Virus record (IMG/VR): IMGVR_UViG_3300044645_001220
Span: 1 to 59,638 of that record
Origin: a virus
Lineage: Duplodnaviria; Caudoviricetes
DNA length: 59,638 bases
Direction: 5' to 3' (one strand)
Of this stretch, positions 2,957-59,003 are shown one piece after another. Every line of letters starts with the position of its first letter. Position 1 is the first letter of the stretch. Position numbers and translations under genes: made by a program. A model generated the notes under the pieces. The model was not told the origin of the DNA. It saw only the letters and a list, made by a program, of their open reading frames with translations, and made no database searches.

Positions 2957-2966
2957 AGGAATCACC

Positions 2967-43866: not shown

Positions 43867-43906
43867 CCAAACTCTGGTCGCTTCTACCCTTTTTCTGGAG
43901 TGAGTT

Positions 43907-45238: not shown

Positions 45239-45998
45239 CCCCGAGTTTGAGTCATTCCTGGTCGATTGCCACGAAGAGGACGATGCTGCCCTAGAGGCAA
45301 GTCTTGTCGAATGTGGAGGGGCAAGAGATCCGATTGTGGTGTGGAAGGGCCACGGCGTTATTGTCGATGGCCACCGCCGATACAAAATCTGCCAGAGACT
45401 AGGATTCCCGTATCGCGTCGAGGAGATACACTTCGACGATCGAACGGCAATCCTGAAGTGGATGGCGAATTGGCAGTTCATGCGGCGGAACATGACTCCC
45501 GCACAACGGGCAGTCCTGGTCCACCGAATCGTCAATCAGCGAACGATCGAGTCGCCGTCGGCCCCGGTGACGGCAGTGGTTCGAGAAGTCGCCGAGCAGA
45601 CACAGCGAAGCGAACGACAGGTGTATCGCGATGCTGCGGCTGGAAGGGTGCTGGATACGGCCCCGGAGGAGATTCGTGAAGTTGCACTAGAAATGCCGCT
45701 CTCCGAAGTCTCTCAGATTGGGGCGATTCCAGAATCCGCCAAGGACGAGATTGTGTCGATCCACGACAAGGGCGAGCGGAAGAAGCGAATCAAGTCGGAG
45801 ATCGCCAAGACGAAATCCAAGGGCAAGCCCACCGGCCCATGCTCTCGGACATTGCAGGATGCGACAGAACTTCTTGCGCTACTGCAAAAGAAGTGCAGCG
45901 ATATTTCGCGGCAAGTGGATGACGCTCATGGATTCAAGACTCTTCGATTCCACTTCAAGGGAATCGACGACATGCTTGACACATGGAGGAGGAAGTAG
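45216..45998 (+). CDS. ParB/Srx N-terminal domain protein
   Basis: G.RDPIVVW..IVDGHRRY.IC, RRNMT. Confidence 0.8.
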   Translation: MSMLLQVDPEFESFLVDCHEEDDAALEASLVECGGARDPIVVWKGHGVIVDGHRRYKICQRLGFPYRVEEIHFDDRTAILKWMANWQFMRRNMTPAQRAVLVHRIVNQRTIESPSAPVTAVVREVAEQTQRSERQVYRDAAAGRVLDTAPEEIREVALEMPLSEVSQIGAIPESAKDEIVSIHDKGERKKRIKSEIAKTKSKGKPTGPCSRTLQDATELLALLQKKCSDISRQVDDAHGFKTLRFHFKGIDDMLDTWRRK

Positions 45999-45999
45999 A

Positions 46000-47574
46000 A
46001 TGTTTCAGCTTGGCCCCGATCTGTGGACGCCTCAAGCGGACGGTATCAGCAGGGCGATTCCTCTCTTGGAGGAGAAGAGAGTAGTTATCCTGCAAGGTCC
46101 AACCGGCTGCGGAAAGACAAGGATGTCGATCGAACTATTTCGATGGGCAATGCACAAGCAGATCGGGGCCAACTTTTATGTCAATCGAAAACTTCTGATT
46201 GGTCAGACTGCGGCTAGGTTCGACTCCCTCGGATTGAAGTACGGCATTCGAGCAGCAGACTACCCCGATTACTTTGACGGGTTTGCACCAATTCAGATTA
46301 CGTCTGCCGACACTGAGGCATCCAGGGTTTTTGATAAGAAGATATGGGACTTGGCAGATGCAGGACTCATAGTCGTTGACGAAGCCCACCTTCAAAAAAC
46401 TCAGGTGATGCGGAAGATCCTCGACGAGTACAAGCGAAGAGGGGCAATGATCTGCCTGCTATCGGCAACTCCAGTTGACATGAAAGACTGGGCCGACGAG
46501 TTGGTAATCTCCGGGACAATGAAGCAGTATCGAGACTGCGGCGCACTGGTCCCGGCGCTAGTCAAGACGATCAGCGTTCCCGACTTGTCGAAGATCAAAC
46601 GCAACGCGACTGGCGAGTACATGATGGACGGCAAGGTCCGAAAGCAGTACACCCAGCATATCGTCGGCGATGTCGTCGATATGTGGAAGAAGTTCAACCC
46701 GGACGCTAGGCCGACAATGATGTATGCTCCAGGTAAGCCAGAAAGCATTTGGCTCACCCAGCAATTCGAGAAGATCGGCGTTCGGTGGTGCCATATCGAC
46801 GCAACAGATGCGTACCTTGACGGAGTTTCGTACAAGCTCACGAGAAAAGCATGGGAGGAGATCAGCGAGCAGTACGTCAAAGGAGAAATCAAAGGGCTTT
46901 CCTGTAGGTTCAAACTCAGGGAGGGGATCGATTTTCCATGCACCTACCACCTAATCCTCGCTACCCCGATCGGCTCTCTCGCCTCGGCCATCCAAACGGT
47001 CGGAAGAGGGATGCGAGCAGATCCAAAAAACCCAGCAAAGGACCATTGCCTAATAACCGACCACGGCGGATACCGCCACAATCACGGAAGCCCGAACCAC
47101 GACCAACCCTGGGAACAACTGTGGAAGATGAATGAGAGGGCAGCGGCCAATCTCCACAAGGACCGCCGAAAGGAAGGAGAAGAGAAGGAGGGCATCGTCT
47201 GCCCCAACTGCTTCACCGAGCGGAACAAGGGACCAAAGTGCCCGTCTTGCGGGTTCGAGCATCCAAAGAGCGTTCGCAGGGTGATGATGGAGGACGGGAA
47301 ATTCATCACGAAGGAAGGTGATTTGGTTCGACCAACACCGAGAATCAAGAGGCATGACACGGAAAAGGTCTGGAGGAAGATGTTCTTCTCATGGAAGAAA
47401 TACCATCCAGACAAGTCTTTCCTACAGCTTGAGGGGTGGTTCTATCGGAAGCATGGCTACAAGCCACCTCGGAACCTACCTCTCATGCCAATCAGAAACA
47501 TCGACTGGCGGCTCAAGATCAGTGACTTGAAGATGGAGGAATTACATGGCTGGAAGCAAGGAGCCAATGGCTAG
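46000..47574 (+). CDS. SF2 DEAH helicase with C-terminal Zn ribbon
   Basis: PTGCGKT, VVDEAH, SATP, EGID.P, Q.VGRGMR, CPNC..CPSCG. Confidence 0.92.
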   Translation: MFQLGPDLWTPQADGISRAIPLLEEKRVVILQGPTGCGKTRMSIELFRWAMHKQIGANFYVNRKLLIGQTAARFDSLGLKYGIRAADYPDYFDGFAPIQITSADTEASRVFDKKIWDLADAGLIVVDEAHLQKTQVMRKILDEYKRRGAMICLLSATPVDMKDWADELVISGTMKQYRDCGALVPALVKTISVPDLSKIKRNATGEYMMDGKVRKQYTQHIVGDVVDMWKKFNPDARPTMMYAPGKPESIWLTQQFEKIGVRWCHIDATDAYLDGVSYKLTRKAWEEISEQYVKGEIKGLSCRFKLREGIDFPCTYHLILATPIGSLASAIQTVGRGMRADPKNPAKDHCLITDHGGYRHNHGSPNHDQPWEQLWKMNERAAANLHKDRRKEGEEKEGIVCPNCFTERNKGPKCPSCGFEHPKSVRRVMMEDGKFITKEGDLVRPTPRIKRHDTEKVWRKMFFSWKKYHPDKSFLQLEGWFYRKHGYKPPRNLPLMPIRNIDWRLKISDLKMEELHGWKQGANG

Positions 47575-47938
47575 CCACATGGAGAGAGACTTGAACGTCT
47601 TTCTTCTCGGCGTGCTTTGTGCAAATTCAGAACGATCCAAGACGGTGCTGAACACCATGCCCGAAGGATCGTTTACCGGAGAGATCGAGGAGATCGTTCG
47701 GGGGTTTCGGATAGGCAACTACTCGAAGCTCCACGCATGGCTGTGCGAGCGGCGAGCGATTGTCGAGAAGGGTACTGACAGCGTGTCAGTAGCTTGCCAA
47801 GCACTGCTGGCAAACAACCGAATCCTGAAGGTCAGGCAGATTTGCCAAGAACTCAACTATGCGAGCAGCGTAGAAAACGCTACCCTGTTGATCGAACGAC
47901 TTGAAAAAGCATTGACGGAACTAAAGAGCATCAAATGA
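47567..47938 (+). CDS. Hypothetical protein, weakly DnaB N-terminal-like
   Basis: SD AAGGAG; helical. Confidence 0.65.
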   Translation: MASHMERDLNVFLLGVLCANSERSKTVLNTMPEGSFTGEIEEIVRGFRIGNYSKLHAWLCERRAIVEKGTDSVSVACQALLANNRILKVRQICQELNYASSVENATLLIERLEKALTELKSIK

Positions 47939-48327
47939 CAACCAAGCCGATCCAGATTCGACTTACTCTTTCGTTCCCAGATCCGTATCTGTTTCCAAAC
48001 AAAACGGCACACTGGGCAAAGAAAGCAAGGCTGGCGGCGAGGCAGAAAGACGAGGCGGCTCTGGTAGCTCTGAATTTCTTCAACAGGAGCGGTCTGGAGC
48101 CTCCAAGGTGGAAAGAGGCGACTATCGACATACGAGCGTTCAAACGAAGCGGGAGGGCCATAGATCGTGACAATTTCCTGAATGCGATGAAGAGGGCTTG
48201 GGACGGACTGGAAAAGGCTGGTGTCGTTGAGAATGATTCTGGATTCTGGCACATGCCGCCCATATTCGAGGTGGACGCAAAGAATCCAAGAGTTGAGTTA
48301 ATCATCACGGAAAGGACTGAGAAATGA
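47935..48327 (+). CDS. RusA-like Holliday junction resolvase
   Basis: PN...HW, DRDN....K...DGL..AGV..ND, PRVE. Confidence 0.8.
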   Translation: MTTKPIQIRLTLSFPDPYLFPNKTAHWAKKARLAARQKDEAALVALNFFNRSGLEPPRWKEATIDIRAFKRSGRAIDRDNFLNAMKRAWDGLEKAGVVENDSGFWHMPPIFEVDAKNPRVELIITERTEK

Positions 48328-48620
48328 GCGGCTGGGACAATACGAATCGTGGGTCACTTTTTTCTAATGATCGGAAGGAAAAGGACTCGCACCCGGACTA
48401 CAAGGGTTCAATCAACATCGATGGCGTCGAATACTGGATCAGCGGGTGGAAGAAGAAGATCCAGAGAGGCGACAAGGCAGGCCAAGTGTTCGTGTCCCTC
48501 AGCGTGCAGGAGAAGGATGGATCGGCGTCGAAGCCACCTTCCAGCAATTCGTTTGGCAGCGGGGACTCGACCAACGGCAATCCTTCGATGGTAGGAGGAG
48601 AAGACGACCTCCCTTTCTGA
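48324..48620 (+). CDS. Putative ssDNA-binding protein
   Basis: PDYKG.I.IDG.EYWISGW, acidic tail ending DDLPF. Confidence 0.8.
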   Translation: MSGWDNTNRGSLFSNDRKEKDSHPDYKGSINIDGVEYWISGWKKKIQRGDKAGQVFVSLSVQEKDGSASKPPSSNSFGSGDSTNGNPSMVGGEDDLPF

Positions 48621-48764
48621 GTACGAAGCAGCAGGATGGCAACTGTTGCTTCCATCGGGAAAACTGGATCGATACTCCCAGTGGCGAAGGGACGGCTAAG
48701 ACGCACTGTAAAAAATGCGGCAAGTTCATTGGCTACAAGAGGACCGATACAAGGCCACCAGGAC

Positions 48765-49169
48765 ATGAGAAAAATCAGCATCAAACGCAAGGAGATCGTT
48801 CGTCAGGCGGCGGCGTTTCGCAAGACTTTGACGAAGACGGTGGGGAAATGCGAGATTTGTTCGGCGAGTCCTGAGAAACCTCACCGGAACTTACATCCCG
48901 CGATGAGCGCTCTATGCGTGCATGAGATTGCAAACGGCCCCGATCGAATGAAAGCACTCGACAAGCCGTTCGCAGTTCTATGCCTGTGCTGGAAGTGCAA
49001 CTCGATGTCCGTAATGAACAAGAAGGATTGGCCGCAGTCTCGACAACTTGCCGTCCTTCTAAAGAGCAGGCCGAACGACTTCGACCTGACTGCTTTCAAC
49101 AGTTTGGTGAACCCTAACGCACCAAACAGAATTACCATTGACGAAGTGAAGGAATATCTGGAGGATTGA
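48765..49169 (+). CDS. HNH-like Zn-binding protein
   Basis: CEIC...HEI...LC..C. Confidence 0.55.
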   Translation: MRKISIKRKEIVRQAAAFRKTLTKTVGKCEICSASPEKPHRNLHPAMSALCVHEIANGPDRMKALDKPFAVLCLCWKCNSMSVMNKKDWPQSRQLAVLLKSRPNDFDLTAFNSLVNPNAPNRITIDEVKEYLED

Positions 49170-49170
49170 A

Positions 49171-49395
49171 ATGACCGAATCAACGAACACCGAAGAACGA
49201 AAGGTCGCATTGGGAAACGTGATGACCATTCAAGCCGTTGCCAAGTATCTCAGCGTCCACGACAACACAGTCCGAAACTGGATACGGTCTGGATCTCTGA
49301 AGTGCATCCGGCTTCCAGGAGGAGGTGTGTCCCGATGCACGATCAGGATTCCAGAAGAGAACCTGAAAGAGTTTCTGAGCAGCCGCACTAAGTAA
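49171..49395 (+). CDS. Excisionase-like HTH protein
   Basis: MT...VA.YL.V...TVRNWI.SG.L....RI....L..FL. Confidence 0.85.
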   Translation: MTESTNTEERKVALGNVMTIQAVAKYLSVHDNTVRNWIRSGSLKCIRLPGGGVSRCTIRIPEENLKEFLSSRTK

Positions 49396-49470
49396 AAGAA
49401 AAGCCCCCCTCGGTCTGGCGGAACCAAGGGGGGCCGTCGCTGGTGACGCGAGAGAAAGGATTCGCGTCAC
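49395..49470 (-). ncRNA. Putative ~75-nt small RNA with an anti-SD loop and intrinsic terminator
   Basis: Promoter at 49476-49503; hairpin 49441-49472 with minus-strand loop AUCCUUUCUC; GC stem 49403-49434 followed by a U-tail. Confidence 0.55.
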
Positions 49471-49475
49471 CAGTA

Positions 49476-49503
49476 ATAGTAGTCCGCCGAACCATCTTGT
49501 CAA
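49476..49503 (-). promoter_or_regulatory. Sigma70 promoter of the putative sRNA
   Basis: TTGACA-16 bp-TACTAT on the minus strand. Confidence 0.65.
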
Positions 49504-49800
49504 TACGTTCGGCGTCCGGCCAAGCCAAGCATCCAAGGCGAAAGCACAGATCGATTGGCCGGGAAACTATTTCCGAAAGGACACCGTAGCGTCCGGTGCA
49601 AACGACGCTCCTGCGTTCCCGTTGTCATGCTGACGACTCCAGGCAACGGTAAAGAGCAGGCGCGAGAGAGTGAGGATTTTCCTGGGCTATCGCGTTACCA
49701 ATCGCCCCAAAGCTGACGACGGGCCGGGACGGAACCGAAGGCAGCGACTACCCATGCAGGGAGTCGCTGTCTCTCAACCGAACAAAACCGAAGGCATGTC

Positions 49801-49828
49801 TTGACTCGTGTTTACCTGATGATAAACT
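49801..49828 (+). promoter_or_regulatory. Possible sigma70 promoter
   Basis: TTGACT-16 bp-TAAACT with a TG extension. Confidence 0.5.
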
Positions 49829-49867
49829 TGTCTACGTTGTAAATGTTTTCTCAAGCAAAGGACGGAC

Positions 49868-50401
49868 ATGAACGACATAATCAACCTGATTGCACTGATG
49901 AACAAGGCGTTCAAGCAGCCAGTCGCTACCGATCTACAGAACCTTGGGCCAGAGCGAATCGCCAAGTTCGAGGCCGCTCTTGCCGAAGAAGTCAAAGAGC
50001 TTTCTCTTTGCCTCAAGGTCGAGGACGGAGAGGCCGTCGCCATCGACTTCGTTCAGTTTGCCGACACACTTTCCGACATCCTGGTCTATGTCCTGAGTGA
50101 ATCGGTCAAGTGGGGAATACCTATCCTGTCCGTGACGAGGGCCGTCATTGCCAGCCAGGAAACGAAACTGGTTGACGGCGAACCTGTCATGTCTCCATGC
50201 GGAAACAAGTGGGGAAAGGGACCGAAATTTACGCCTCCCGACGACGACATCGAGACGCTGCTTGTAGCCAGCCTGTCCGATCAAGACATCGACCTGTATC
50301 GGAGGATCGGCAACTTCGTTCGCAACTATCCTGTCGATAGGAATCTAGTTATTCCAGAAGCAGAGAGTTTGATTTCCAATAAGAATGAAGTAGTAGAATG
50401 A
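49868..50401 (+). CDS. MazG-like (PRA-PH/DR2231-type) nucleotide pyrophosphohydrolase
   Basis: EEVKE, AD.L.D..VY, S..TK, K..KGP.F.PPD. Confidence 0.75.
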   Translation: MNDIINLIALMNKAFKQPVATDLQNLGPERIAKFEAALAEEVKELSLCLKVEDGEAVAIDFVQFADTLSDILVYVLSESVKWGIPILSVTRAVIASQETKLVDGEPVMSPCGNKWGKGPKFTPPDDDIETLLVASLSDQDIDLYRRIGNFVRNYPVDRNLVIPEAESLISNKNEVVE

Positions 50402-50613
50402 GTTCATCTATTCCCGCACGTTCGAGACATGGCGTGTCGGGTAGGACTCCGGGACGATCGTGCCAGCCGGACAATAAATATGGGACGATTTCGGGATTCT
50501 CCTTTTGGTTGCCCGTCGTCTAGCGAGGATACTGAAGCGATTCAGAGACGCAGGAATCGACGCCTGCCGGGTGCTTGGTGTTGGTAACGTGGTTTTACTT
50601 TGGAGATTGAAAC

Positions 50614-50796
50614 ATGAGCGGCGTCGAGGCATGGCTGATTTTCTGGATGATCTTCGGCATCGAGGGCGCATTCCGTCCTGTCGAAAGGGTTGGTGAGTGG
50701 GTGACTGGCCAGGATCTTTTGGTTCCTGGAATCGCGGCGATTGACGATCCGCTTTGGGGTCGCAATGGCGATGTCAAGCCGCCGACGGTGGAGTAG
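50614..50796 (+). CDS. Small hypothetical protein
   Basis: 60 aa, SD GGAG. Confidence 0.4.
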   Translation: MSGVEAWLIFWMIFGIEGAFRPVERVGEWVTGQDLLVPGIAAIDDPLWGRNGDVKPPTVE

Positions 50797-50803
50797 GTGT
50801 GGC

Positions 50804-50899
50804 GGGTCGGTGGAGTAGACGAGCGGCATTGCCGGAAGCGGGAGTTGGTACCTGCGGCTGCGTCGGCCCTCTTCGCGGGTTCGAATCCCGCCCGACCTG
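50804..50899 (+). ncRNA. tRNA-like element with canonical acceptor and T-arm but non-canonical middle
   Basis: GGGTCGG/CCGACCT acceptor; GCGGG-TTCGAAT-CCCGC T-arm; no canonical D or anticodon arm. Confidence 0.55.
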
Positions 50900-50908
50900 A
50901 TGAGAAGT

Positions 50909-51018
50909 GTATAACGTCAGCAATCAGCGGGCCGCAACAATTTCAGTTTGAATAAGGATAGTTTCATGGAATCAGAGAATCAGGTTGATGCGGCTCCGTC
51001 TGCATTGCGTTGTTCTAC
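50909..51018 (+). mobile_element. attC-like integron cassette recombination site 1
   Basis: GTATAAC...GTTCTAC ends; bulged hairpin GCAATCAGCGGGCCGCAACAA/TTGATGCGGCTCCGTCTGCATTGC. Confidence 0.7.
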
Positions 51019-51271
51019 TACCAAGCTATGCGATTTTGTGCATGAGCTTGAATCCGCGTTGAGCTTCGTTACAGATGAATGTCGCCTCACAAGTCAAGTC
51101 GAAGTTTTCTACGAGATGCGAGATGGTGAAGGGTTCATGCGAGTTACGTGCAAGGAAGATCGTGAAGACGCAGAAGCATATCGACGGTTGAAGCGAGGTT
51201 TAGCCGAATCGCACAAAGCCAGCCTTGGCAAGGATTGTGGAGTTTGGGATTCGCGGAATGTAGGTCAGTAG
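50966..51271 (+). CDS. Cassette gene 1, hypothetical (starts inside attC)
   Basis: SD AAGGA and ATG lie in the attC loop; the stop overlaps GTAGAAC. Confidence 0.6.
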   Translation: MESENQVDAAPSALRCSTTKLCDFVHELESALSFVTDECRLTSQVEVFYEMRDGEGFMRVTCKEDREDAEAYRRLKRGLAESHKASLGKDCGVWDSRNVGQ

Positions 51272-51355
51272 AACAAGCTTTATACAGTTCCCGCCCGACC
51301 TGATTTGGATTGCGTGAACTGATCGAATTTTTCGAAGCGTTGAAAGGAGATTGCG

Positions 51356-52162
51356 ATGAGCGAACCAAACGACGTTATCGGCAACGCCGATTCATCACAT
51401 TGTTCTGCGGTCTTGAACTATGGAGGCGGCAGACAGACAGCAGCAATTATCGTGTTGATTTTGCGTGGTGTAATTGAGCGTCCAGGCAAGATCATCATGG
51501 CAAACACAGGGCGAGAGAATCAGTCGACATGGGATTATCTGGCGAAGCATGTTCAACCGGCCTTGGACGGCATTGGAATGCAGGTCGAAGTAATCGACCC
51601 ACCAAAGATTCCGTTGCTGACATACGGCGCAGACGATAAGCCAATCATTCCGGTTTACACGGCAGATGGAAAGATGAGCCCGTTTTGCAGTGGTAACTGG
51701 AAGCGGGACCGAATGAACAGTTACCTAGCGTCGATAAAATGGCCAGGGCGTGAGCGATGGATAGGATTTTCCGCAAACGAAAAAAAGCGAATTAATCGAA
51801 TGGTTTCATCCGAGAGACCAGACAAATACACGTTTCGTTTTCCGTTGGCGGAAATGTTCATCACTACTGACGACTGCTTAGCAATCGTCGAAAAATGGGG
51901 CTGGCCACAGCCGAGCGTCAGCTCGTGCTGGATGTGCCCGCACAAGAAAAACGAAGAATGGGCAAGGGTTCGCGACAGCGAGCCCGAACACTGGGAAGAG
52001 GCTTGCCGCATAGATGAGGAATTGCGGGAGGAAGATTTGGAGCGCGGCGGAACAGGCGTGTGGCTGCACCATTCGCGGGTTCCGTTGCGTCAAGCAGATT
52101 TGAGCGTTGCCGAGCCGTTGCGGGTGGAGCGTCAATGCAGCCTCGGCATGTGTTTTGTTTAG
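51356..52162 (+). CDS. PAPS-reductase-like/PP-loop adenine nucleotide alpha hydrolase (cassette gene 2)
   Basis: NYGGGRQT, ANTG.E...T, C...WK, WIGFS..E..R, FPL, SSCWMCP. Confidence 0.8.
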   Translation: MSEPNDVIGNADSSHCSAVLNYGGGRQTAAIIVLILRGVIERPGKIIMANTGRENQSTWDYLAKHVQPALDGIGMQVEVIDPPKIPLLTYGADDKPIIPVYTADGKMSPFCSGNWKRDRMNSYLASIKWPGRERWIGFSANEKKRINRMVSSERPDKYTFRFPLAEMFITTDDCLAIVEKWGWPQPSVSSCWMCPHKKNEEWARVRDSEPEHWEEACRIDEELREEDLERGGTGVWLHHSRVPLRQADLSVAEPLRVERQCSLGMCFV

Positions 52163-52270
52163 ATCCGCATAACAATCGTTAGACTGAAACGCGGGTTCGA
52201 ATCCCGCCCGACCTGATGTGAATTGCATAACGCTCGGATTCACCGAGCCGAAAGGAAACAGGTAACAAGA

Positions 52271-52483
52271 ATGAGCAAGTTCAGACGGATTTCAGAGTTA
52301 GAAGCAGCGGAGATTGCGAACGACAGCGAGCAAGGTCGGATGCTGGTGATGGAGCGTGATTTCCTCCGTGATCTTGTCGCGGCAAAGGACGAATACATTG
52401 CGTGCTACAAGACAGGCAAGCGACCAAGCGAGAAGTTGTTTGCAAAGTTGGAGCGCCTCACTGCGTTGGTGATTGCGGACTAG
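52271..52483 (+). CDS. Cassette gene 3, hypothetical
   Basis: ORF between attC-like boundaries. Confidence 0.6.
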   Translation: MSKFRRISELEAAEIANDSEQGRMLVMERDFLRDLVAAKDEYIACYKTGKRPSEKLFAKLERLTALVIAD

Positions 52484-52487
52484 GTAA

Positions 52488-52577
52488 GACGAACGCTGGC
52501 AATCACGGGGCCGCGACCGTGACAGCCAGCCATGAGAAAAGACGTTGTCGCGGCTCCCGTGCATTGCTTTGTTCATC
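52488..52577 (+). mobile_element. attC-like site (best-preserved copy)
   Basis: GACGAAC...GTTCATC; arms GCAATCACGGGGCCGCGAC/GTCGCGGCTCCCGTGCATTGC pair fully apart from two bulged bases. Confidence 0.78.
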
Positions 52578-52594
52578 GTTCTTTGGAGATTTGA

Positions 52595-52816
52595 TTGATT
52601 ATGACGAGTCGAAGAGTTGGTGAGTTGGTCGAAACCATCAATGCGGCTTTGTTTGAGTTGCGAGAAATCAAGAAGCGAAAGCCGCAATTTCGCGTTGAAG
52701 TTCGAGACGAACCCGGCAGCATTTTGAATGGATACAGAGAGGGCGACATCACTTTTGATGAAGCAAAGGAACGGCTGGAACGTGTGTTTCTCAGTCAGTA
52801 TGGAAGCAACGCCTAG
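52595..52816 (+). CDS. Cassette gene 4, hypothetical
   Basis: SD GGAG; followed by GATGAAC, complementary to the cassette's own GTTCATC start. Confidence 0.65.
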   Translation: MIMTSRRVGELVETINAALFELREIKKRKPQFRVEVRDEPGSILNGYREGDITFDEAKERLERVFLSQYGSNA

Positions 52817-52908
52817 ATTCGATGAACAATCGTTATGCAGATCCCGCCCGACCTGATTTTGATTGCGGGAACGGTTCGAATTTTTAGAAGGGTTGAAAGG
52901 AGGTAGCG

Positions 52909-53118
52909 ATGGCTGACGGATTTCGAGGCATCCCCGGCGTGCCGGAGGGGTGGGAGTTGGTGGAGTTCCGCACTGTGCGCAAGGGTGACTGGATCTTGTC
53001 TGACCAAGGCTGGCCGACGCTATGGCAAAGCGATGGAACTGGCGATCGTGGTGGAATATTTGCGATCATCCGCGAGACCGAAAATCGTGAGGGCGTTGAG
53101 GTGACAGATGGCGAGTGA
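52909..53118 (+). CDS. Hypothetical protein
   Basis: SD AAAGGAGGT; VPEGWELV motif. Confidence 0.7.
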   Translation: MADGFRGIPGVPEGWELVEFRTVRKGDWILSDQGWPTLWQSDGTGDRGGIFAIIRETENREGVEVTDGE

Positions 53119-53533
53119 CGTTGACGCTCTGGTGGCGACGCTTGATGAGCGGTACGGAGCCTACGGCTGGAGCATGTGGCGTGCTGCGATCGGTGGCTGG
53201 GTGGTCAAGATCGAGAGCGACAAGAGCACGCACAGCAAGCCAACCATCGGCCAAGCGTTGCAAGCAGCAATTGACCACAAGCCTCTGCCGGTGGTGCCGA
53301 GGAGGCCGAGCATTTTTTCGGCTAGCGGTGCAATTGTCTACAAGGTCAGGGGAGGCGGCTGGGGCGTGGAGTATAAGGGGCGAGATTGTTACGTCTGGTT
53401 GCCAACAAAGAAGATGGCCGAGCAGTGGGCTAAGCAGAACGAAGAGCGGGTTGATAAAGCCTATGACGCCTGGATGACCAATCACGGCTGGACTATCAAA
53501 AAGAAGGAAGGAGTGGATTTTAGGTATGAGTAG
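53108..53533 (+). CDS. Hypothetical protein
   Basis: SD GAGGTG; overlapping gene chain. Confidence 0.7.
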   Translation: MASDVDALVATLDERYGAYGWSMWRAAIGGWVVKIESDKSTHSKPTIGQALQAAIDHKPLPVVPRRPSIFSASGAIVYKVRGGGWGVEYKGRDCYVWLPTKKMAEQWAKQNEERVDKAYDAWMTNHGWTIKKKEGVDFRYE

Positions 53534-53768
53534 TACAACAGAGACACTTGCAAAGGCGGCAAGAAAACTTGCCGAGCAGTGCGACGGACTCACAGGCGAT
53601 GGCGTTGTTGGTGCGGCGCTGCATGAGATTGCAGAGCGATTGCTGGCGCAACATCGCCTGCTGGAACGCATCGCAACGACTGCATCGCATTTGACTCACG
53701 ACCGCCACTATTGCATGAGGATTGACGCTGAAGTTATCGATGAGATAAGGAGGCGTGTAAATGGCTGA
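53526..53768 (+). CDS. Hypothetical protein
   Basis: Overlapping gene chain. Confidence 0.65.
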   Translation: MSSTTETLAKAARKLAEQCDGLTGDGVVGAALHEIAERLLAQHRLLERIATTASHLTHDRHYCMRIDAEVIDEIRRRVNG

Positions 53769-54132
53769 CAATAAGCGAACCGATGCGGAGTTGATGGCGG
53801 CAGCGAGGCACATCACCAAAATCGAAGAAGTGACCCTTCTTTGCGAGCGTCTGGAGGAGTATCGCAACGAGGTTATGAGAGTGCTGTCCATGCTTTCTGT
53901 ATTATCTAGCCAGTTGAGAGATCAATACTCCGTGGATTCCAGCAATTGCATCGATATATGCCGGAATCGTCTTGGTGATCTATTGAACGGAAATCCAATC
54001 GTTTGCTGTTCTTGCGGATGCAAGGATGGGCTGGAGTATGGGCCAGATCCATTTTCATCAGAGATTGGTGGTGATTATACTCCAGTCTGGGAGTGCGGAC
54101 CATGCCGACTTGAAAGCGTGAGAGAGATATAA
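53761..54132 (+). CDS. Hypothetical protein with C-terminal Zn-binding motif
   Basis: C..CG...DPF..EI.GD......C..C. Confidence 0.7.
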   Translation: MADNKRTDAELMAAARHITKIEEVTLLCERLEEYRNEVMRVLSMLSVLSSQLRDQYSVDSSNCIDICRNRLGDLLNGNPIVCCSCGCKDGLEYGPDPFSSEIGGDYTPVWECGPCRLESVREI

Positions 54133-54174
54133 ATGATTGTCGAAGGTTTTCAAATCTCAACGGAGGATGGTGGT

Positions 54175-54315
54175 ATGCCACTGAAAAAAGGTTCGAGTAA
54201 CAAGGTAATCCAGGCCAACATCAAGAAGGAGATCGCCGCAGGCAAGCCGCAGAAGCAAGCCGTCGCGATTGCCCTGAATGCTGCTGGCAAGTCCAAGCCA
54301 AAGAAAGGCAAGTGA
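54175..54315 (+). CDS. Small basic phage protein (MPLKKG...KQAVAIAL type)
   Basis: Recognisable motif; SD GGAGG. Confidence 0.8.
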   Translation: MPLKKGSSNKVIQANIKKEIAAGKPQKQAVAIALNAAGKSKPKKGK

Positions 54316-54319
54316 GACG

Positions 54320-54607
54320 GTGAGTCTTAAAACGTACAAGTCGAGCGCTCGGAAGTACCGAAGCACCAAGAAACTGCTTGGTGAGTATCAGCGACAAATC
54401 AACTCTGACTTCGTTAGGCTTCTTGAAAGTCTGCTGGAGAGTCATTCCCTGAGCGATGTTGCAAAGAGGACTGGATACGGAGTCACCTACTTGTGTCTGT
54501 TGCGTTACGGCAAGAGGATGGCGACAATCGATGTTTTCGAGTCGCTTATCGCTCTAGCCGAGGGACGCAAGAATGAACGCAAGAGGAAGATTCCTTCCAA
54601 GCCGTAG
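54320..54607 (+). CDS. XRE-like HTH protein
   Basis: SLSDVAKRTG....YL..L..GKR; start uncertain. Confidence 0.65.
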   Translation: MSLKTYKSSARKYRSTKKLLGEYQRQINSDFVRLLESLLESHSLSDVAKRTGYGVTYLCLLRYGKRMATIDVFESLIALAEGRKNERKRKIPSKP

Positions 54608-55052
54608 TGCTTCAATGGTTTTGACGATCGCTTTCCTGGCGGCAGTTGCGGCCCCGGCTTCAACTGCCGTTTCTTATTTGGCCGATCGAGTAGAACCGTC
54701 GTTCGTCTACGCTGCAAAGGTGGTCGATGTCGTTGATGGAGACACGATCGATGTCCTCATTGACCTTGGGTTCAAGACTTTCTCCGAGCAGCGAATCAGG
54801 GTTCTCGGAATCGACTGCCCGGAGGTGAAGGGCAAGACAAAGAAGGCCGGTGACGCTGCGACTGAGGCTACTCGAATCTGGGTGAAGTCTCACGGAAGTA
54901 TCGTCGTCCGAACTGTGAAGGCCAAGAAAGGCCAGATCGATTCGTTCGGTCGGTATCTCGCAGAAGTCCTTGGGGACGATCAGGCAGGAACCCAATCGTC
55001 CCTCGGAGAGTTTCTTCTGTCAGAGGGGCACGCTAAGGCGTATCGGGAGTGA
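54573..55052 (+). CDS. Thermonuclease (SNase family) with N-terminal hydrophobic segment
   Basis: VVDGDTID, RVLGIDCPE, DSFGRYLA, LL.EGHA. Confidence 0.92.
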   Translation: MNARGRFLPSRSASMVLTIAFLAAVAAPASTAVSYLADRVEPSFVYAAKVVDVVDGDTIDVLIDLGFKTFSEQRIRVLGIDCPEVKGKTKKAGDAATEATRIWVKSHGSIVVRTVKAKKGQIDSFGRYLAEVLGDDQAGTQSSLGEFLLSEGHAKAYRE

Positions 55053-55689
55053 TCTTGATGCGTGCGTACTTCCACGTCAGCGCATGCCTTCCGTTGCAGC
55101 GGTCGCGACAAACAAATCTTTGATACAAGTTTTGGTCGCTGATTACTGCAAGAAGCTCTCTGGTTTCAAAACCCATTTCCTGGCAGTCGCTCACCTCAAC
55201 CATCTCCCCAACGTCTGCCTGCGTCGGATCTCGGTACTGCTCAGAGGGTGGGGTGGTGGGGACAATGACGGGGCAAGCGTGACCGCACCAATTTACATCA
55301 GCCACCCTCGATTCGTTCAATAGGCAAAAATACCTTTGACCAATTCTGGGCCTCTCGTACACCAACGCATTGCCCTCGCCAATCTCAGACGCCATCGCAT
55401 CCGGCACCGCGATATCGACAACGCTGTAGCCTTCCGGAACCCAAGATTGCATCGGCTCAACCGGATCGCCAACATTCAGCGTCTTTGGCTCAACCGGCTC
55501 AAGCCAGTCCGGATGGAAATGGTAATCTCCAGCGCCCACCAGCTTAAAGTAGCCACTATACGCAACCAACTCCCTAATTCGATGCAACGATCCATCAAAA
55601 AGATCCATTTCCGGGGACCACGCTGGGCCGTGCATCACATTCGCAGGCTTCCGCACTCGCACCCGATCTCCAACCTGAAACTTACTCAC
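55033..55689 (-). CDS. Hypothetical protein with SH3/KOW-like N-terminus
   Basis: KFQVGDRVRV; C-terminal W.YARI. Confidence 0.75.
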   Translation of the reverse strand: MSKFQVGDRVRVRKPANVMHGPAWSPEMDLFDGSLHRIRELVAYSGYFKLVGAGDYHFHPDWLEPVEPKTLNVGDPVEPMQSWVPEGYSVVDIAVPDAMASEIGEGNALVYERPRIGQRYFCLLNESRVADVNWCGHACPVIVPTTPPSEQYRDPTQADVGEMVEVSDCQEMGFETRELLAVISDQNLYQRFVCRDRCNGRHALTWKYARIKITPDTP

Positions 55690-55721
55690 GATCTACCTTC
55701 CTCTCTCTTCCAGCAACAAAA

Positions 55722-56270
55722 TCACACAAGCAGCAACGCCGCTGCATACACAACAGTCACAGTCAAGATGAACGCACCCACAACCAAAGCCAACTCAAAC
55801 AGCCAGCCAGTAGGCTCCCAGTCTCCGTCGTCCTTGGAATCTGCGTCAGGGTCCACGGAATTGCCCTGCCTACGCCACGCCAGAGCTTCGGGCGACTGAC
55901 CATAGGCAAACGGATCGGATGCGTCATACTGGCCAGAAACGGGCTTTCTCCAGCCCTCTTCCGGGAGGTACAGGTACTCGACATCCTTCGCCTTCCAAGG
56001 ATACCCACTAGAAATGTCGATCGTAGCCGTCTGCGCCCAGACACCCCTGGGAAGCGGATCGCTTTCAACCCACAGGTTTCGCTCAGAGACAAGCATTTTC
56101 GCGTAGTCGGCTGACTCCTCAGAAGAGCAGACCTGATGTTTGTCGATCTCCCCCGGTATCCGGCCACTGGAATTCTTACTGGGATTCTCAGACCAAATCT
56201 CGAAAACCCACCAGTCACCCAGCTTGCGAAGTTTCCCGATACGCAATGAATCTTTTCCGCCAGTCATCAC
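55722..56270 (-). CDS. Hypothetical protein with C-terminal TM segment
   Basis: Hydrophobic C-terminus; overlapping gene chain. Confidence 0.65.
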   Translation of the reverse strand: MMTGGKDSLRIGKLRKLGDWWVFEIWSENPSKNSSGRIPGEIDKHQVCSSEESADYAKMLVSERNLWVESDPLPRGVWAQTATIDISSGYPWKAKDVEYLYLPEEGWRKPVSGQYDASDPFAYGQSPEALAWRRQGNSVDPDADSKDDGDWEPTGWLFELALVVGAFILTVTVVYAAALLLV

Positions 56271-56665
56271 TCGCTCTCCTCTCCAGGTACAAATTCACCG
56301 TGACTCCAACTCACAACCTCGCTCTGGATAGCTTTCAAGCTACCCTCGTCGCACTTGTGTAAATGATCGCGCAAGTCACCATACGTCTTGCGGAATAGAA
56401 TCTGCCAAGCCAGCATCCGTCTCGTCCGGTCGTCCAGGATCACCCCAAGCTCTCTCTGAACACCGTCGTCCCGGACACGCACGTTCGCCCCGTTACTCAG
56501 AATCAGGACGCCATTGTGGACGTTCATCACCTTGGCAAGTTGCAACCTGGGAAGCTCTCCGTAGTCGGCGCCGTACTTCCTCCAGACATGAAGAACCTCG
56601 TCACCAGGACGAAGCTCCGATAGGTCGCCGTCAAACGTCACTCGCCCAATGTCAACTCGCTGCAT
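56267..56665 (-). CDS. Hypothetical protein
   Basis: 132 aa in the minus-strand operon. Confidence 0.7.
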   Translation of the reverse strand: MQRVDIGRVTFDGDLSELRPGDEVLHVWRKYGADYGELPRLQLAKVMNVHNGVLILSNGANVRVRDDGVQRELGVILDDRTRRMLAWQILFRKTYGDLRDHLHKCDEGSLKAIQSEVVSWSHGEFVPGEESE

Positions 56666-56667
56666 GG

Positions 56668-57048
56668 CTAATCCCTCCCTTTGGACTTGCGGCCCATCTC
56701 CCGCTGATGGACTTGCATCACTACAGCATACACCTGCTCAAGCTCCTCGTTCGTGAAATCAAGCCAGTCCGAGAAGTAGGCAAGCCGATGAATCATCTCC
56801 TGCCTCCTCGCCTTCTCCAGCAACTCAGGCGTAGGAATCATGGCTTTGTCCGCTGAAGTGGAGTACGGCTGACGGCCACGAACCGTCAGGTCCGGGTTCA
56901 GCGTCCTGCCCCCCTTCATCACAATCCTGCCGCTAGGAGTCACCTTCTCCACCGTGTCAGTCACATACCGACTGTGATCCTTGAAAACCAGCTTGTCCCC
57001 AGGCTTCACAACAGGATTCTCTTTTGATCCAGGCATAACCTCACCCAC
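56668..57048 (-). CDS. Hypothetical protein
   Basis: VKPGDK..., VEKVTPSGRI motif. Confidence 0.7.
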   Translation of the reverse strand: MGEVMPGSKENPVVKPGDKLVFKDHSRYVTDTVEKVTPSGRIVMKGGRTLNPDLTVRGRQPYSTSADKAMIPTPELLEKARRQEMIHRLAYFSDWLDFTNEELEQVYAVVMQVHQREMGRKSKGRD

Positions 57049-57075
57049 CTAAAGCCTCTCGGATACCAGTGTACG

Positions 57076-57489
57076 TCACTTCATAGACTCCAGGATGAAT
57101 GCTAGCTCGCGGCACTGCCTAATGTGTTCTTTGTGCTTCGCAAGCTCATCGGCCTTCCTCTGTATCATTAGGTCGCTAGCAAAAAACCCCGGATCTTTGC
57201 GCTTCAGTGCAAGTATGCCGTGCAAGCTGACCAGAGCCGATATTCTGCTGTCTGCCGGAACAACATACAGTTCTTCTCGATAGACCACTGCAACCTCGTC
57301 ACGCGCACCATCAGGACACTTGTCCCACACGGTTATCATAATATCCGGCGTGTCATTGCCTCGTAGATATTGCCTTGCGTCGGAAATCGCGTCCCTCGCC
57401 GTCTTCGAGAAAAAGCAGTCGATTCTCTGGTTGTCGTCCTCGACATAGCACCTAAACCTCCATTCATCCATCCAGTCTCGATCTGACAT
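57076..57489 (-). CDS. Hypothetical protein
   Basis: SD GAGGT; 137 aa. Confidence 0.7.
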   Translation of the reverse strand: MSDRDWMDEWRFRCYVEDDNQRIDCFFSKTARDAISDARQYLRGNDTPDIMITVWDKCPDGARDEVAVVYREELYVVPADSRISALVSLHGILALKRKDPGFFASDLMIQRKADELAKHKEHIRQCRELAFILESMK

Positions 57490-57493
57490 AACC

Positions 57494-57766
57494 TCACCCC
57501 CCTAAAGCCTCTCGGCCACCAGCAGCAACAGATCGCATACGCTCAAAAACCTCACTCAACCGCTCCTGCACCCACACATCTTCTCCGTCAATCCTCACCA
57601 ATGTCCCGTTCACATCCACATACCCAGTGTCGGCCACAATCCGCTGCTTCTTCGCTCGAAGCATCGTCACCGCCGTCAAACGAACCTGGATCAGATACCC
57701 GTTCACATCCGTCAGCTTCATAAACCCCGGCATCCAACACCCCCTCCCGGCCCACTCCCAGGCCAT
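57494..57766 (-). CDS. FlbD-like small protein (true start may be downstream)
   Basis: MKLT..NG....V......T.V...G....V.E...EV pattern. Confidence 0.55.
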   Translation of the reverse strand: MAWEWAGRGCWMPGFMKLTDVNGYLIQVRLTAVTMLRAKKQRIVADTGYVDVNGTLVRIDGEDVWVQERLSEVFERMRSVAAGGREALGG

Positions 57767-58003
57767 TCACCAGCCATCCAACCAAAAAACAACCAAACAA
57801 CCACACAAAGAACAACAAACAGTATCAAGAAGTGATAGGAAAATCAAGCCGAATCGTACAGTTTTTTGTAAATCAAAAATCGAAATTACCAAGCAAATCA
57901 TTCAAGTCGCTGTATATGGGGGATCAATGATTTCTCACGAAAATTCTGGAGGGGGAATCTGAGGTTCACTGTGCCGCCAGCGGGGCCCCCCCCTCCCTCC
58001 GGT

Positions 58004-58079
58004 CCTCTGGACCCCCTCTGGACCCCCTTTTCCCAGCCTTTTCCAGCCTTTTCCAGCCTTTTCCATCCGGTTTCCATTC
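58004..58079. repeat. Short tandem repeats (CTCTGGACCCC x2; TTTTCCAGCC x4, degenerate)
   Basis: Directly visible in the divergent non-coding region. Confidence 0.85.
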
Positions 58080-58375
58080 GTCACCATCGACCGTTTCCGA
58101 AGACGGACCCCATCGGATGCCATGCAATGCCATGAATTAACTCCCAATGCCACCCCCGCCCCCTCCTCCAACCCTGCCAATGCCCCCTATGTTGCAAAAA
58201 CCAAGTGTCCAACCAACCCTACCAATCCCGCTTCCACCCTTATTTTTATTGGCAATTCGACGATTCCCAAAAATTCCACCTTTACCCCGCCGTAAAATAA
58301 GAGCAGAGCCGACCCCAGCAGCACCCCGCAGCACTGGACGATCGGCACCCAACCCTCTTCAAGGAGCAGAAGACG

Positions 58376-58945: not shown

Positions 58946-59003
58946 TGGTTGAAGTGTGGTTGAAGTGTGGTTTGATTCTCAATTTTTCAAGGAACTGAAA
59001 ACC

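Follow-up and report, generated by a model that had tools for sequence, protein, structure and literature searches.

The region between positions 50,804 and 53,118 of a complete tailed-phage genome from lake water (59,638 bp, which as a whole is called the window here) raises the question of whether a phage can carry an array of integron gene cassettes without an integron integrase of its own, and of how such cassettes would be exchanged and expressed.

attC sites and the missing integrase

Two intact sites were found in the region:

50908..51016, + strand: attC site H1, with its bottom strand on the + strand (covariance model and DNA fold)
52487..52578, + strand: attC site H2, with its bottom strand on the + strand (covariance model and DNA fold)

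Both had been described in the first-pass annotation as full attC-like hairpins and both are present at these places; that the + strand is the attC bottom strand had been overlooked. The sites were scored with R1, our own covariance model and not that of IntegronFinder, built only from 57 bacterial sites whose consensus has 22 pairs, 8 of them with two-sided changes. R1 accepts H1 with 38.3 bits (E 5.9e-8) and H2 with 64.9 bits (E 2.6e-15), both on the + strand; since a 20-nt motif of the phage's 3' arm had served to find the bacterial sites, the 3'-arm part of these scores is circular, whereas the motif has no bearing on the 5' arm, the boxes and the spacing. Because of an indel between the two arms, a rigid 3'-arm pattern gave no match, and a gapped one took its place. 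The minus strand of H2 scores only 17.4 bits and, beyond H1 and H2, no R1 match in the 59.6 kb passes E 0.01. A 14-base pattern of the box region was unspecific, with 116 stretches that were nearly all unrelated, and these loci were reused as a negative control, in which R1 had 0 matches (79 unrelated viral loci, 738 kb).

Folded as single-stranded DNA, the + strand reaches -17.2 kcal/mol in H1 (z -2.97) and -23.6 kcal/mol in H2 (z -4.00), each against 200 shuffles. The AAC and GTT boxes pair in both sites (AAC 50913-50915 and GTT 51012 in H1, AAC 52492-52494 and GTT 52571 in H2), and both sites align to R1 over their full length as imperfect hairpins. On the 3' arm of H1 there are three single-base bulges, T, T and C, with 3+3 bp between them and the third bulge midway; on that of H2 there are two, T and C, six base pairs apart. 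This geometry fits the attC definition as quoted from PMC5027507, namely AAC on the 5' arm, bulges opposite, a distal T and a 6-bp stem from the first to the last bulge. Two features differ from those given as usual in the quoted part of that source: next to the GTT box, H1 and H2 have a bulged C (usually G), and the unpaired spacer is 2-4 nt (usually 5-6 nt). The terminal loop of H1 holds a ribosome-binding site and the ATG (50966) of gene 1, and a near-identical copy of H2 is found in five other viral contigs. Judged by sequence, H1 and H2 are genuine integron attC sites.

No intI gene was detected in the 59,638-bp genome (TIGR02249, 0 matches), which is thus without a complete integron, and PF00589 gave 0 matches in the complete genome at E<=0.1, in line with the first-pass statement that no tyrosine recombinase is encoded. 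Both models give matches in 14/14 control genomes. Among the 10 related or similar viral records, none has an IntI above the cut-off. The minimum for a CALIN, a cluster of attC sites lacking an integrase, is two attC sites as quoted in PMC9892861; H1 and H2 lie 1.47 kb apart, and the genome is without an integrase. With attC sites and no tyrosine recombinase, the region is therefore a CALIN in a phage, although only two of the about seven junctions in the window are intact sites.

Cassettes, junctions and exchange among relatives

The following genes lie in and directly behind the array:

50966..51271, + strand: cassette gene 1, 101 aa, no family; cassette 1 is 50915-51273
51356..52162, + strand: PAPS-reductase-like gene, 268 aa, phrog_424 (E 7.7e-33); cassette 2 is 51274-52172
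52271..52483, + strand: cassette gene 3, 70 aa, no family; cassette 3 is 52231-52493
52601..52816, + strand: cassette gene 4, 71 aa, no family above the cut-off; cassette 4 is 52494-52826
52909-53118: gene 5, a conserved backbone gene common to the relatives L011, L012 and L016

Each small gene is a cassette-like unit. A cassette would begin at the C of the AAC box, contain its own attC site, a GTTnnnn box and an ORF, and end in nnnnAA. Pairing in the circular form of the cassette accounts for the complementarity of the boxes at its start and end. The first-pass annotation had drawn attention to this complementarity, and it holds for cassette 1 with GTTCTACT at 51012 and AGTAGAAC at 51267 (8/8 positions), for cassette 2 with GTTCTGCGG at 51402 and CCGCATAAC at 52165 (8/9) and for cassette 4 with GTTCATCG at 52571 and CGATGAAC at 52820 (8/8). 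A homologue of gene 1 is found in L004 and L007 with the same two boxes. A degenerate 3' half-site (51363-51410) with GTTCTGCGG at its end overlaps the first 15 codons of the PAPS-reductase-like gene, and L011 has the same 16-codon start with a covarying box pair, GTTCCACGG/CCGTGGAAC, and another gene body.

The same signature is found beyond the window. In the phage arrays L003 and L004, complementarity extends 4-7 nt beyond GTT across the cassettes in 7/9 adjacent pairs, and in bacterial arrays 4-9 nt in 8/10 pairs, counts that keep as misses the mislocated GTT boxes (L004 1276-1368 and window H2) as well as one L004 pair and one L228 pair that are not neighbours. As controls, the median across hairpins is 1, and random pairs reach at least 4 in 173/2000. 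A guide pairing of the IS200/IS605 type was considered for the boxes and dropped, because IntI-linked arrays account for them.

The remaining junctions are degenerate:

51267..51285, + strand: AAC box closing cassette 1 (AGTAGAAC), then 4 nt later the GTT-like TTTATAC (direct reading; family D3)
52165..52184, + strand: AAC box closing cassette 2 (CCGCATAAC), 4 nt, GTTAGAC (direct reading)
52225..52250, + strand: AAC box GCATAAC with an attC 5'-arm remnant, leader of gene 3, hairpin GCTCGG-ATTCA-CCGAGC
52820..52838, + strand: AAC box closing cassette 4 (CGATGAAC), 4 nt, GTTATGC (direct reading)

No hairpin lies between the AAC and GTT-like boxes of 51267-51285, and in its alignment of the minus strand of 52165-52184, R1 (10.3 bits, E 3.4) treats the entire hairpin as missing from the site. 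The stretch 51363-51410 resembles a 3' half-site in that 19/27 positions are like the 3' arm of another site type, with an R1 score of only 8.7 bits (E 9.2). By our reading, the partial sites of the first-pass annotation are AAC boxes and half-site remnants; they fail R1 and none is significant alone (best 8.7-10.3 bits, E 3-9). The leader of gene 3 (52225-52250) also precedes another gene in L004, has high contig depth and has four different upstream continuations in lake-metagenome contigs.

Comparing cassette content across relatives had been proposed as a check, and the content does differ: relatives carry 1 to 8 attC-type sites with different genes. One example is a unit of about 375 bp, consisting of a site and a gene, which differs at 3 positions between L003 and L004 and has unrelated flanks, with the breaks exactly at the AAC boxes. 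Contigs of the lake metagenome diverge right after 52494 and right before 52225/52227; these differing contig ends are alternative neighbours, not observed recombination events, and stretches left uncovered by partly matching contigs do not count as evidence here. L004 encodes Lar (E 1.5e-11), a GIY-YIG protein and a weak D12 methylase match, and the site motif is also present in at least 16 other IMG/VR contigs. L014 and L015 are an unrelated phage and were left out of all counts.

Bacterial integrons and the orientation of the ORFs

The family of H1 and H2 is the one that fills chromosomal integrons of Planctomycetota and some other phyla; 28/80 names among the genome matches listed lie outside Planctomycetota. 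IntI was found in 5/5 bacterial genomes tested with 290-435 bits (NCBIfam cut-off 265) and above the cut-off in 0/14 control genomes. In 3/3 loci examined, the bacterial sites form one-stranded arrays directly upstream of intI. At E<=1e-5, the window has no protein in common with any bacterial locus, and the bacterial site matches are therefore not prophages of this phage. A DNA-level copy of the window's cassettes was likewise absent from 401 Planctomycetota genomes (2 candidates per genome scored), with one 33-nt match only.

The chromosomal integrons of Planctomycetota (G001:C17, G003:C5 and G005:C44) share with the phage arrays the attC family (R1 37-91 bits), the logic of AAC and GTT boxes across cassettes and similar cassette sizes. 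They differ in having intI and an attI junction, in lacking the tRNA-derived element described below and in the direction of their genes, with ORFs mostly opposite to the bottom strand (7/8 intervals). The longest frame between sites lies on the site's strand in 32/36 viral intervals, compared to 1/8 bacterial ones. Since the + strand is the attC bottom strand, the phage ORFs are inverted relative to bacterial cassettes, and thus the phage cassettes cannot derive unchanged from ordinary host cassettes. Furthermore, an ATG in the loop (offsets 37-58) opens an ORF of at least 50 codons in 19/56 viral sites, while an ATG at these offsets is found in 0/16 bacterial sites. Only this ATG-in-loop count is used, as the ORF test also accepted GTG starts, which swells its 'inside site' class (31 viral, 6 bacterial). 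From the orientation and ORF counts we left out L005-L007 and L010, which duplicate L003, L004 and L008, and L240 and L242, which duplicate L244 and L236.

These comparisons bear on the possibility of an inert relic, in which a fragment of a host integron was acquired in one event of illegitimate recombination and has been decaying since. Routes of this kind are raised for phage CALINs in PMC9892861, and the degenerate state of most window junctions would fit. A relic would not be expected to have its ORFs inverted against bacterial cassettes in nearly all viral intervals, to differ in content between relatives or to show a near-identical cassette in two contexts, and no bacterial locus shares proteins with the window. 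We therefore regard this origin as highly improbable.

What we propose instead is that an integron integrase supplied by the host excises and inserts the cassettes, and that it would act on the folded bottom strand with the crossover between the AA and the C of the box. The homology of the sites and the positions of the breakpoints suggest that such a host IntI acts in trans. With the ORF on the bottom strand, each site would act as 5' leader to its gene; the ribosome-binding site and the start codon would in many sites come from the terminal loop, and the 3' arm would be translated as a shared N-terminal peptide. As a whole explanation, a CALIN in a tailed phage, with cassettes moved by a host IntI in trans and with ORFs on the bottom strand, is probable.

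The tRNA-derived element, leader repeats and related systems

Besides the attC sites, the array holds a second set of repeated modules:

50804..50899, + strand: tRNA-derived element (TLS), 96 nt, upstream edge of the array
50887..50901, + strand: 15-mer core CCCGCCCGACCTGAT, copy 1, end of the TLS (exact match)
51290..51304, + strand: 15-mer core, copy 2, without T-arm (exact match)
51305..51355, + strand: leader B, about 50 nt, with a TCGAA-N-TTCGA palindrome and a GGAG ribosome-binding site (family D1)
52190..52217, + strand: T-arm with 15-mer core, copy 3, without the 5' acceptor strand (repeat, exact match)
52843..52857, + strand: 15-mer core, copy 4, without T-arm (exact match)
52858..52908, + strand: leader B', repeat of leader B, before gene 5 (family D1)

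The TLS has an acceptor-like stem (50804-50810 / 50892-50898) and a T-arm (50875-50891), and a 64-nt insert replaces the D and anticodon arms. The 'T-arm 29-mer' of the first-pass annotation does exist, but it is only the end of this larger element. The TLS is not called as a tRNA (ARAGORN, 0; Rfam, no tRNA match at the gathering score or at E<=5). Its copies in L008 and L012 reach 41.7 and 39 bits with the Rfam tRNA model, compared to a gathering score of 29; the copies in relatives lack the anticodon arm and have 14-63 nt of other sequence in its place. Between phage groups, the acceptor and T stems keep their pairing through two-sided changes. The RNA fold of the TLS is no more stable than those of shuffles (z -0.24), so the claim of structure is based on covariation among relatives and not on energy. 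A group I intron, a tmRNA and a permuted tRNA were rejected, as none had a model match (ARAGORN, Rfam).

The 15-mer CCCGCCCGACCTGAT has four exact copies in the window, starting at 50887, 51290, 52203 and 52843; a fifth match at 33181 with 3 mismatches is at chance level. The scaffold that had been reported to occur twice was recovered as a 64-nt repeat (50874-50937 and 52190-52253, 83%) and an 88-nt repeat (51271-51358 and 52824-52911, 86%). Leader B precedes different genes in L008, L011, L012, L013 and L016, and across the window and L008-L016 the 15-mer has at least five right-hand continuations and three left-hand forms. In relatives, the 15-mer is a module joint, and the TLS with its repeated 15-nt end would mark further joints between modules. 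A scan for the sigma-70 consensus, which may not be that of the host, found 3 in the region compared to 2.5 expected, with 0 in the leaders. Two twister ribozymes were also seen in gene leaders of the same genome.

In tandem islands at tRNA genes, the att direct repeats are made of the tRNA 3' end. The array is similar in that it opens with a complete tRNA-like element, whose 3' end then recurs between segments; it differs in that the segments are 0.4-0.9 kb long and without an integrase, the element does not look like a functional tRNA and the searched genomes yielded no matching host tRNA. The tRNA-end copies could accordingly be att-type repeats, left by tandem insertions of a tRNA-targeting integrase acting in trans, with the attC sites as cargo. 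An exact 15-mer with variable sequence on both sides and a full element placed first, with 3' fragments downstream, would be in keeping with this, as would one metagenome contig in which 52218 runs into 52881 across 12 other letters. The 22-mer at the end of the TLS is however absent from 401 Planctomycetota genomes (<=1 mismatch), and the 21/22-mer from the 5 IntI-bearing genomes, so the end was not copied from a host tRNA of these genomes, and no tRNA source or attB is shown. Moreover, no integrase is encoded in the phage, the T-arm is missing from two of the three internal copies, and tandem insertion leaves the box complementarity and the sites themselves unexplained. On balance, we find an att origin of the repeats unlikely.

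T4-type phages possess mobile regulatory cassettes called PeSL (promoter-stem-loop), for which homologous shuffling between conserved intergenic repeats has been proposed. Here too, conserved intergenic modules stand beside small accessory genes in a hyperplastic region with shuffling, and leader B and the 15-mer behave in this way; the differences are that no promoter was recognised and that the main junctions are attC sites with site-specific breakpoints. By analogy, the hairpins could work mainly at the RNA level, as leaders for translation start or mRNA processing, in a hyperplastic region shuffled by homologous recombination between repeats, their likeness to attC reflecting ancestry and not present use. 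The sites do sit in 5' leaders with a ribosome-binding site and ATG in the loops, leader B and the 15-mer are common to many different genes, and the twister ribozymes in gene leaders and the lack of an integrase point the same way. Homologous exchange, however, would neither keep the boxes complementary nor put the breaks exactly at AAC; the same box signature occurs in bacterial arrays beside IntI, the bulge geometry that IntI requires is kept across at least four unrelated arm sequences, and no sigma-70-like promoter was found in the leaders. Use mainly as RNA leaders is therefore very unlikely in our view, and we retain the reading of the region as a CALIN that would be served by a host IntI.

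CALINs in phages are not new as a kind, as they were published in 2023 (Qi et al., Front Microbiol, PMC9892861), a report that the first-pass annotation had overlooked. As quoted from that paper, 10,705 NCBI phage genomes were surveyed and 17 CALINs found, phage attC sites were recombined by IntI1, the cassettes include methyltransferases, and the arrays are described as typically oriented; its available text holds no occurrence of Planctomyc, tRNA or 'opposite'. As far as those CALINs are described there, they are similar to the present one in having at least two attC sites, small cassettes, no IntI and genes of anti-restriction type, which are found here in relatives. The present arrays differ from that description in their bottom-strand ORFs, start codons in loops, the flanking tRNA-derived element and their origin in uncultured lake phages. 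What is new here are the ORFs on the bottom strand, the loop ATG codons that open ORFs and the tRNA-derived element at the start of the array with its recurring 15-nt end.

More tentatively, and with considerable doubt, a set of freshwater phages might hold a private pool of cassettes with bottom-strand ORFs, adapted to use in phages, in which the loop is the translation start, host IntI does the shuffling, the TLS is an anchor and the 15-nt end is a joint. If so, unrelated proteins would share an attC-encoded N-terminal peptide, and the inversion would separate the phage and host pools functionally, since the cassettes of each would be antisense in an array of the other. The shuffling by host IntI would then take place during infection, and the 15-nt end would serve either recombination or RNA processing as a second joint.

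Integron cassettes rank among the main routes by which bacteria exchange genes. Phages have only recently been shown to carry attC sites, and here whole arrays, with up to 8 sites in the loci examined, are found in uncultured phages. The cassettes of anti-restriction type in relatives (Lar, methylase-like and GIY-YIG) fit a role in the arms race between phage and host. That the ORFs are systematically inverted and that start codons lie within the sites suggests that phages may run a cassette economy of their own on the recombinase of the host, instead of merely ferrying host cassettes, and that an attC site may act as a recombination site and a translation leader at once.

Sites and layout of the array

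With the crossover set between AA and C, the array region divides into the units listed below, in which leaders B and B' are copies of a repeated gene leader of about 50 nt and the 15-mer is the end of the tRNA-derived element.

Features of the array region (both hairpins were read in the sequence and supported by covariance model and DNA fold)
50804-50899: tRNA-derived element, unit 1 of the region
50908-51016, plus strand: attC hairpin H1
50915-51273: cassette 1, H1 and gene 1
51274-52172: cassette 2, box pair lacking a hairpin, 15-mer copy 2, leader B and a PAPS-reductase-like gene
52173-52230: 58-bp unit, T-arm and 15-mer copy 3, between boxes
52231-52493: cassette 3, 5'-arm remnant and gene 3
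52487-52578, plus strand: attC hairpin H2
52494-52826: cassette 4, H2 and gene 4
Array end, before the conserved backbone gene at 52909: box pair, 15-mer copy 4 and leader B'

The first-pass annotation had described two attC-like hairpins, complementary boxes at cassette starts and ends, a scaffold occurring twice and tRNA-end repeats, and all four are present. Besides H1 (50908-51016) and H2 (52487-52578), there are three gene-flanking box pairs, GTTCTACT/AGTAGAAC, GTTCTGCGG/CCGCATAAC (with one mismatch) and GTTCATCG/CGATGAAC. The scaffold consists of one 64-nt and one 88-nt repeat pair, and the 15-mer CCCGCCCGACCTGAT has four exact copies. H1 and H2 are the only intact sites in the window; the half-sites are putative, being read by alignment to other site types and not significant by the covariance model R1 described below. 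The PAPS-reductase-like gene (phrog_424, E 7.7e-33) overlaps a putative decayed 3' half-site with its first 15 codons.

Folded as single-stranded DNA, the plus strands of H1 and H2 reach z-scores of -2.97 and -4.00 against shuffled sequences. H1 has three single-base bulges and H2 two, every one on the 3' arm. The arm sequences of the two sites differ, and pairing is retained by compensatory changes.

Rfam has no attC model, so we built one from independent bacterial material. A 20-nt 3'-arm motif was scanned across one genome per prokaryote species and gave 87 stretches; 52 among the 80 matches listed carry names such as Fuerstiella, Pirellulaceae, Rubripirellula, Aporhodopirellula rubra and Gimesia, which we take to be Planctomycetota. 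In 61 bacterial matches the site is complete, with an AAC box about 82 nt 5' of the GTT box. All five site-bearing genomes tested have an integron integrase (290-435 bits, curated cut-off 265), and none of 14 control genomes has one above this cut-off. At the three loci retrieved with surrounding DNA (G003:C5, G001:C17 and G005:C44), one-stranded site arrays lie immediately upstream of intI, on its coding strand.

In the RNAalifold consensus of 57 long bacterial sites (alignment A1), a base helix of 4 bp (AAC-G / T-GTT) is followed by a short spacer of unpaired bases and by a stem of 18 bp whose 3' arm bears two single-base bulges; of the 22 consensus pairs, 8 show two-sided compensatory changes. 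The model R1, for which only these bacterial sites were used, was run on the whole window with filters off and matched the plus strand of H2 with 64.9 bits (E 2.6e-15) and of H1 with 38.3 bits (E 5.9e-8), scores to which the 20-nt stretch contributes circularly because the search motif was copied from the 3' arm of this phage; the AAC box, 5' arm, spacing and bulge positions of the bacterial sites are independent of the motif. The next best match in the window was the minus strand of H2 (17.4 bits), no other match had an E-value under 0.01, and R1 had no hits in 79 unrelated viral loci (738 kb). R1 stands in for a curated attC model here and supports both hairpins.

The same attC family was also seen in records named Blastocatellia, Pyrinomonadaceae, Verrucomicrobiales, a cyanobacterium, Nitrospira and Chloroflexia, and a 62-nt short version in Desulfobacter-type and other MAGs (loci L134, L139, L146, L155, L168, L189, L207; L137, L143, L149, L170); its range thus extends beyond Planctomycetota.

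Absence of an integrase and probable exchange of cassettes

The window is an entire virus record (59,638 bp, direct terminal repeats, completeness rating 100%) encoding portal protein, large terminase and helicase, with 61 of its 80 greedy ORFs on the plus strand. Searches of the complete window gave no match to the IntI family model TIGR02249 and none to the general tyrosine recombinase model PF00589 at E<=0.1; both models detected targets in 14 of 14 control genomes as positive control. The claim that the phage lacks a tyrosine recombinase therefore holds, and the first-pass interpretation is right in kind: with R1-matching sites and no integrase the array is a CALIN, an attC cluster lacking an integrase. 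The first-pass observation is confirmed. Among ten further viral records tested, none had an IntI above cut-off and two had one weak ordinary tyrosine recombinase each (24 and 20 bits). The record of viral locus L004 has a single weak tyrosine recombinase match of 24 bits, far under the IntI cut-off, and a 347-aa ORF (L004 4295-5338) lies directly 3' of its 7-site array.

Such an array belongs to a known kind, since passages of Qi et al. 2023 (PMC9892861) report 17 CALINs from a screen of 10,705 NCBI phage genomes. According to the same passages, five of six phage attC sites tested recombine with attI1 under IntI1 (PMC9892861). In the proposed mechanism, a host IntI acting in trans would recombine the phage cassettes.

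Units once circular and closed at the crossover point leave a classical signature, box complementarity, which we measured on neighbouring sites by matching the GTT box that follows the first against the reverse-complemented AAC box preceding the second. In phage arrays L003 and L004 the match extends 4-7 nt past GTT in 7 of 9 adjacent pairs (one miss involves a mislocated box, the other a pair separated by two cassettes), and by 4-9 nt in 8 of 10 pairs of bacterial arrays. Within single sites, measured across the hairpin, the median match is 1 (27 sites), and 173 of 2000 random box pairs match by at least 4. The signature is thus alike in phage arrays and in arrays adjoining IntI, and the three pairs of the window agree with it.

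Scanning IMG/VR with the site motif gave 22 stretches, which lie on about 20 contigs, and the relatives examined have 1 to 8 sites per locus. A near-unchanged H2, including its loop, is found in five other viral contigs behind differing upstream genes, and cassette content differs among relatives. Furthermore, L003 and L004 have in common a unit of about 375 bp with 3 differences, made up of the C of the AAC box, H2, the GTT box, an 87-aa gene and the end box; its flanks are unrelated on both sides and break exactly at the two AAC boxes.

Contigs from four lake-water metagenome runs were aligned to window positions 50400-53400. Run X2, a sample that differs from the likely source, covers nearly all of this region. 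Contigs from X2, X13 and X15 diverge from the window directly past 52494, where the C of the AAC box preceding H2 lies, and four distinct upstream continuations stop at 52225/52227, the AAC box that precedes gene 3. In one contig of X15, 52218 and 52881 are connected through 12 other letters, which resembles the arrangement of viral locus L008. As these data are contigs, they show alternative neighbours and not recombination events.

Most cassette genes of the window and its relatives have no family assignment. Besides the PAPS-reductase-like protein of the window, L004 cassettes encode a Lar restriction alleviation protein (E 1.5e-11), a GIY-YIG domain (E 2.3e-5) and a D12 methylase (weak match, below cut-off). 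These products agree with the methyltransferases noted in phage cassettes in passages of Qi et al. (PMC9892861).

tRNA-derived elements and possible RNA signals

The first copy of the tRNA-end repeat, 96 nt long, combines an acceptor-like stem of 7 bp with a canonical T-arm and has no anticodon arm. Neither ARAGORN nor Rfam recognises it as tRNA, and ARAGORN calls no tRNA genes in the window. In viral loci L008 and L012 the homologous first copies score above the Rfam tRNA threshold (41.7 and 39 bits) and have good acceptor, D and T arms, with 14 or 63 nt of other sequence replacing the anticodon arm. Between phage groups, both the acceptor stem (GGGTCGG/CCGACCT versus GGATCGG/CCGATCC) and the T stem (GCGGG/CCCGC versus GCAGG/CCTGC) change on two sides with pairing retained, so selection acts on the first copy as a structured element.

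All internal copies are 3' fragments. Of the window's three, one has the T-arm and none a proper 5' acceptor strand. Comparison across relatives shows at least five different sequences continuing from the exact 15-mer and three forms preceding it, which makes it a module joint. The 22-mer tRNA end was absent from 401 Planctomycetota genomes searched and from five IntI-bearing genomes. Moreover, the element was found in none of 15 further viral loci with the site motif and is thus not a general partner of phage arrays.

The repeat is possibly a joint for short-homology or site-specific recombination, or possibly an RNA-processing signal. Two type-P5 twister ribozymes lie 696 nt apart on the plus strand of the window (2197-2260 and 2894-2956; 48.7 and 46.6 bits, gathering score 37.6), each in the leader or across the annotated start of one ORF (2223-2903 and 2919-3353). 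If self-cleaving, they would cut the transcript just 5' of two consecutive genes, and their presence in gene leaders of the same genome makes RNA processing of leaders plausible.

Within the cassette region of L012, a 103-nt match to the Rfam tRNA model (8044-8146, minus strand, 48.2 bits) has 44 nt in the anticodon region where 13 are expected and gets no ARAGORN call; possibly this is a tRNA carrying a short insertion. A second type of tRNA-derived element (117 nt, acceptor GGATCGG/CCGATCC) is found in L008 (reverse strand, about 4856-4972) and L011 (7075-7191), upstream of the small membrane-protein gene preceding the array, so some relatives hold two such elements. In L014 and L015, from an unrelated IMG/VR phage, nearly all intergenic regions are filled with runs of ACTGA/CAGT-type heptamer-like repeats in both orientations, an unrelated repeat system.

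Orientation of the phage cassettes

Nivina et al. 2016 (PMC5027507), in passages on site geometry, place the AAC triplet and the extrahelical bases of the bottom strand on opposite arms, with a conserved T as distal and usually a G as proximal base, a possible third between them, and six base pairs from first to last. On the window's plus strand the 5' arm holds AAC and the 3' arm the bulges: T then C with six pairs between in H2, and T, T, C with three plus three pairs between in H1. Instead of G, the phage and 57 of 57 bacterial sites have C as proximal base. From the bulge geometry, together with the position of the bacterial arrays relative to intI, the attC bottom strand is the plus strand, which is the phage coding strand.

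GC skew over about 43000-59000 is +0.14 to +0.22 across 50-55 kb and -0.19 to -0.30 beyond 55 kb, where genes switch to the minus strand; the array lies within the strongly positive stretch, which puts the attC bottom strand on the G-rich strand.

In bacterial arrays, 7 of 8 intervals between sites have their longest open frame on the strand facing the bottom strand, as ordinary cassettes predict. In nine viral arrays this frame lies on the bottom strand itself in 32 of 36 intervals, so that the attC forms the 5' leader of its gene. Furthermore, 19 of 56 viral sites, H1 among them, have an ATG at loop offsets 37-58 from which an ORF of 50 or more codons continues through the 3' arm and GTT box. 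No such ATG occurs in 16 bacterial sites, the lone bacterial one being at offset 63 of an unusually long site.

With the ORF start in the loop and the 3' arm translated, unrelated proteins share similar N-terminal peptides: gene 1 and the PAPS-like protein of the window, and the Lar, methylase-like and other proteins of L004. In L011, the 16-codon start of the window's PAPS-like gene and a covarying box pair are combined with another gene body. Because of the crossover position, site, start codon and ORF move as one unit, and this explains why H2 stays with its downstream gene.

Passages of Qi et al. describe the arrays of two virulent phages as having the orientation most typical of bacterial arrays, and 'Planctomyc', 'tRNA' and 'opposite' do not occur in the main text (PMC9892861). 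A limited literature search found no description of inverted phage cassettes or attC-embedded start codons. We infer that these phages hold a cassette population of their own and have not borrowed it from hosts. Inserted by the same chemistry, host cassettes would run antisense to phage transcription; phage cassettes, likewise, would be antisense within host arrays.
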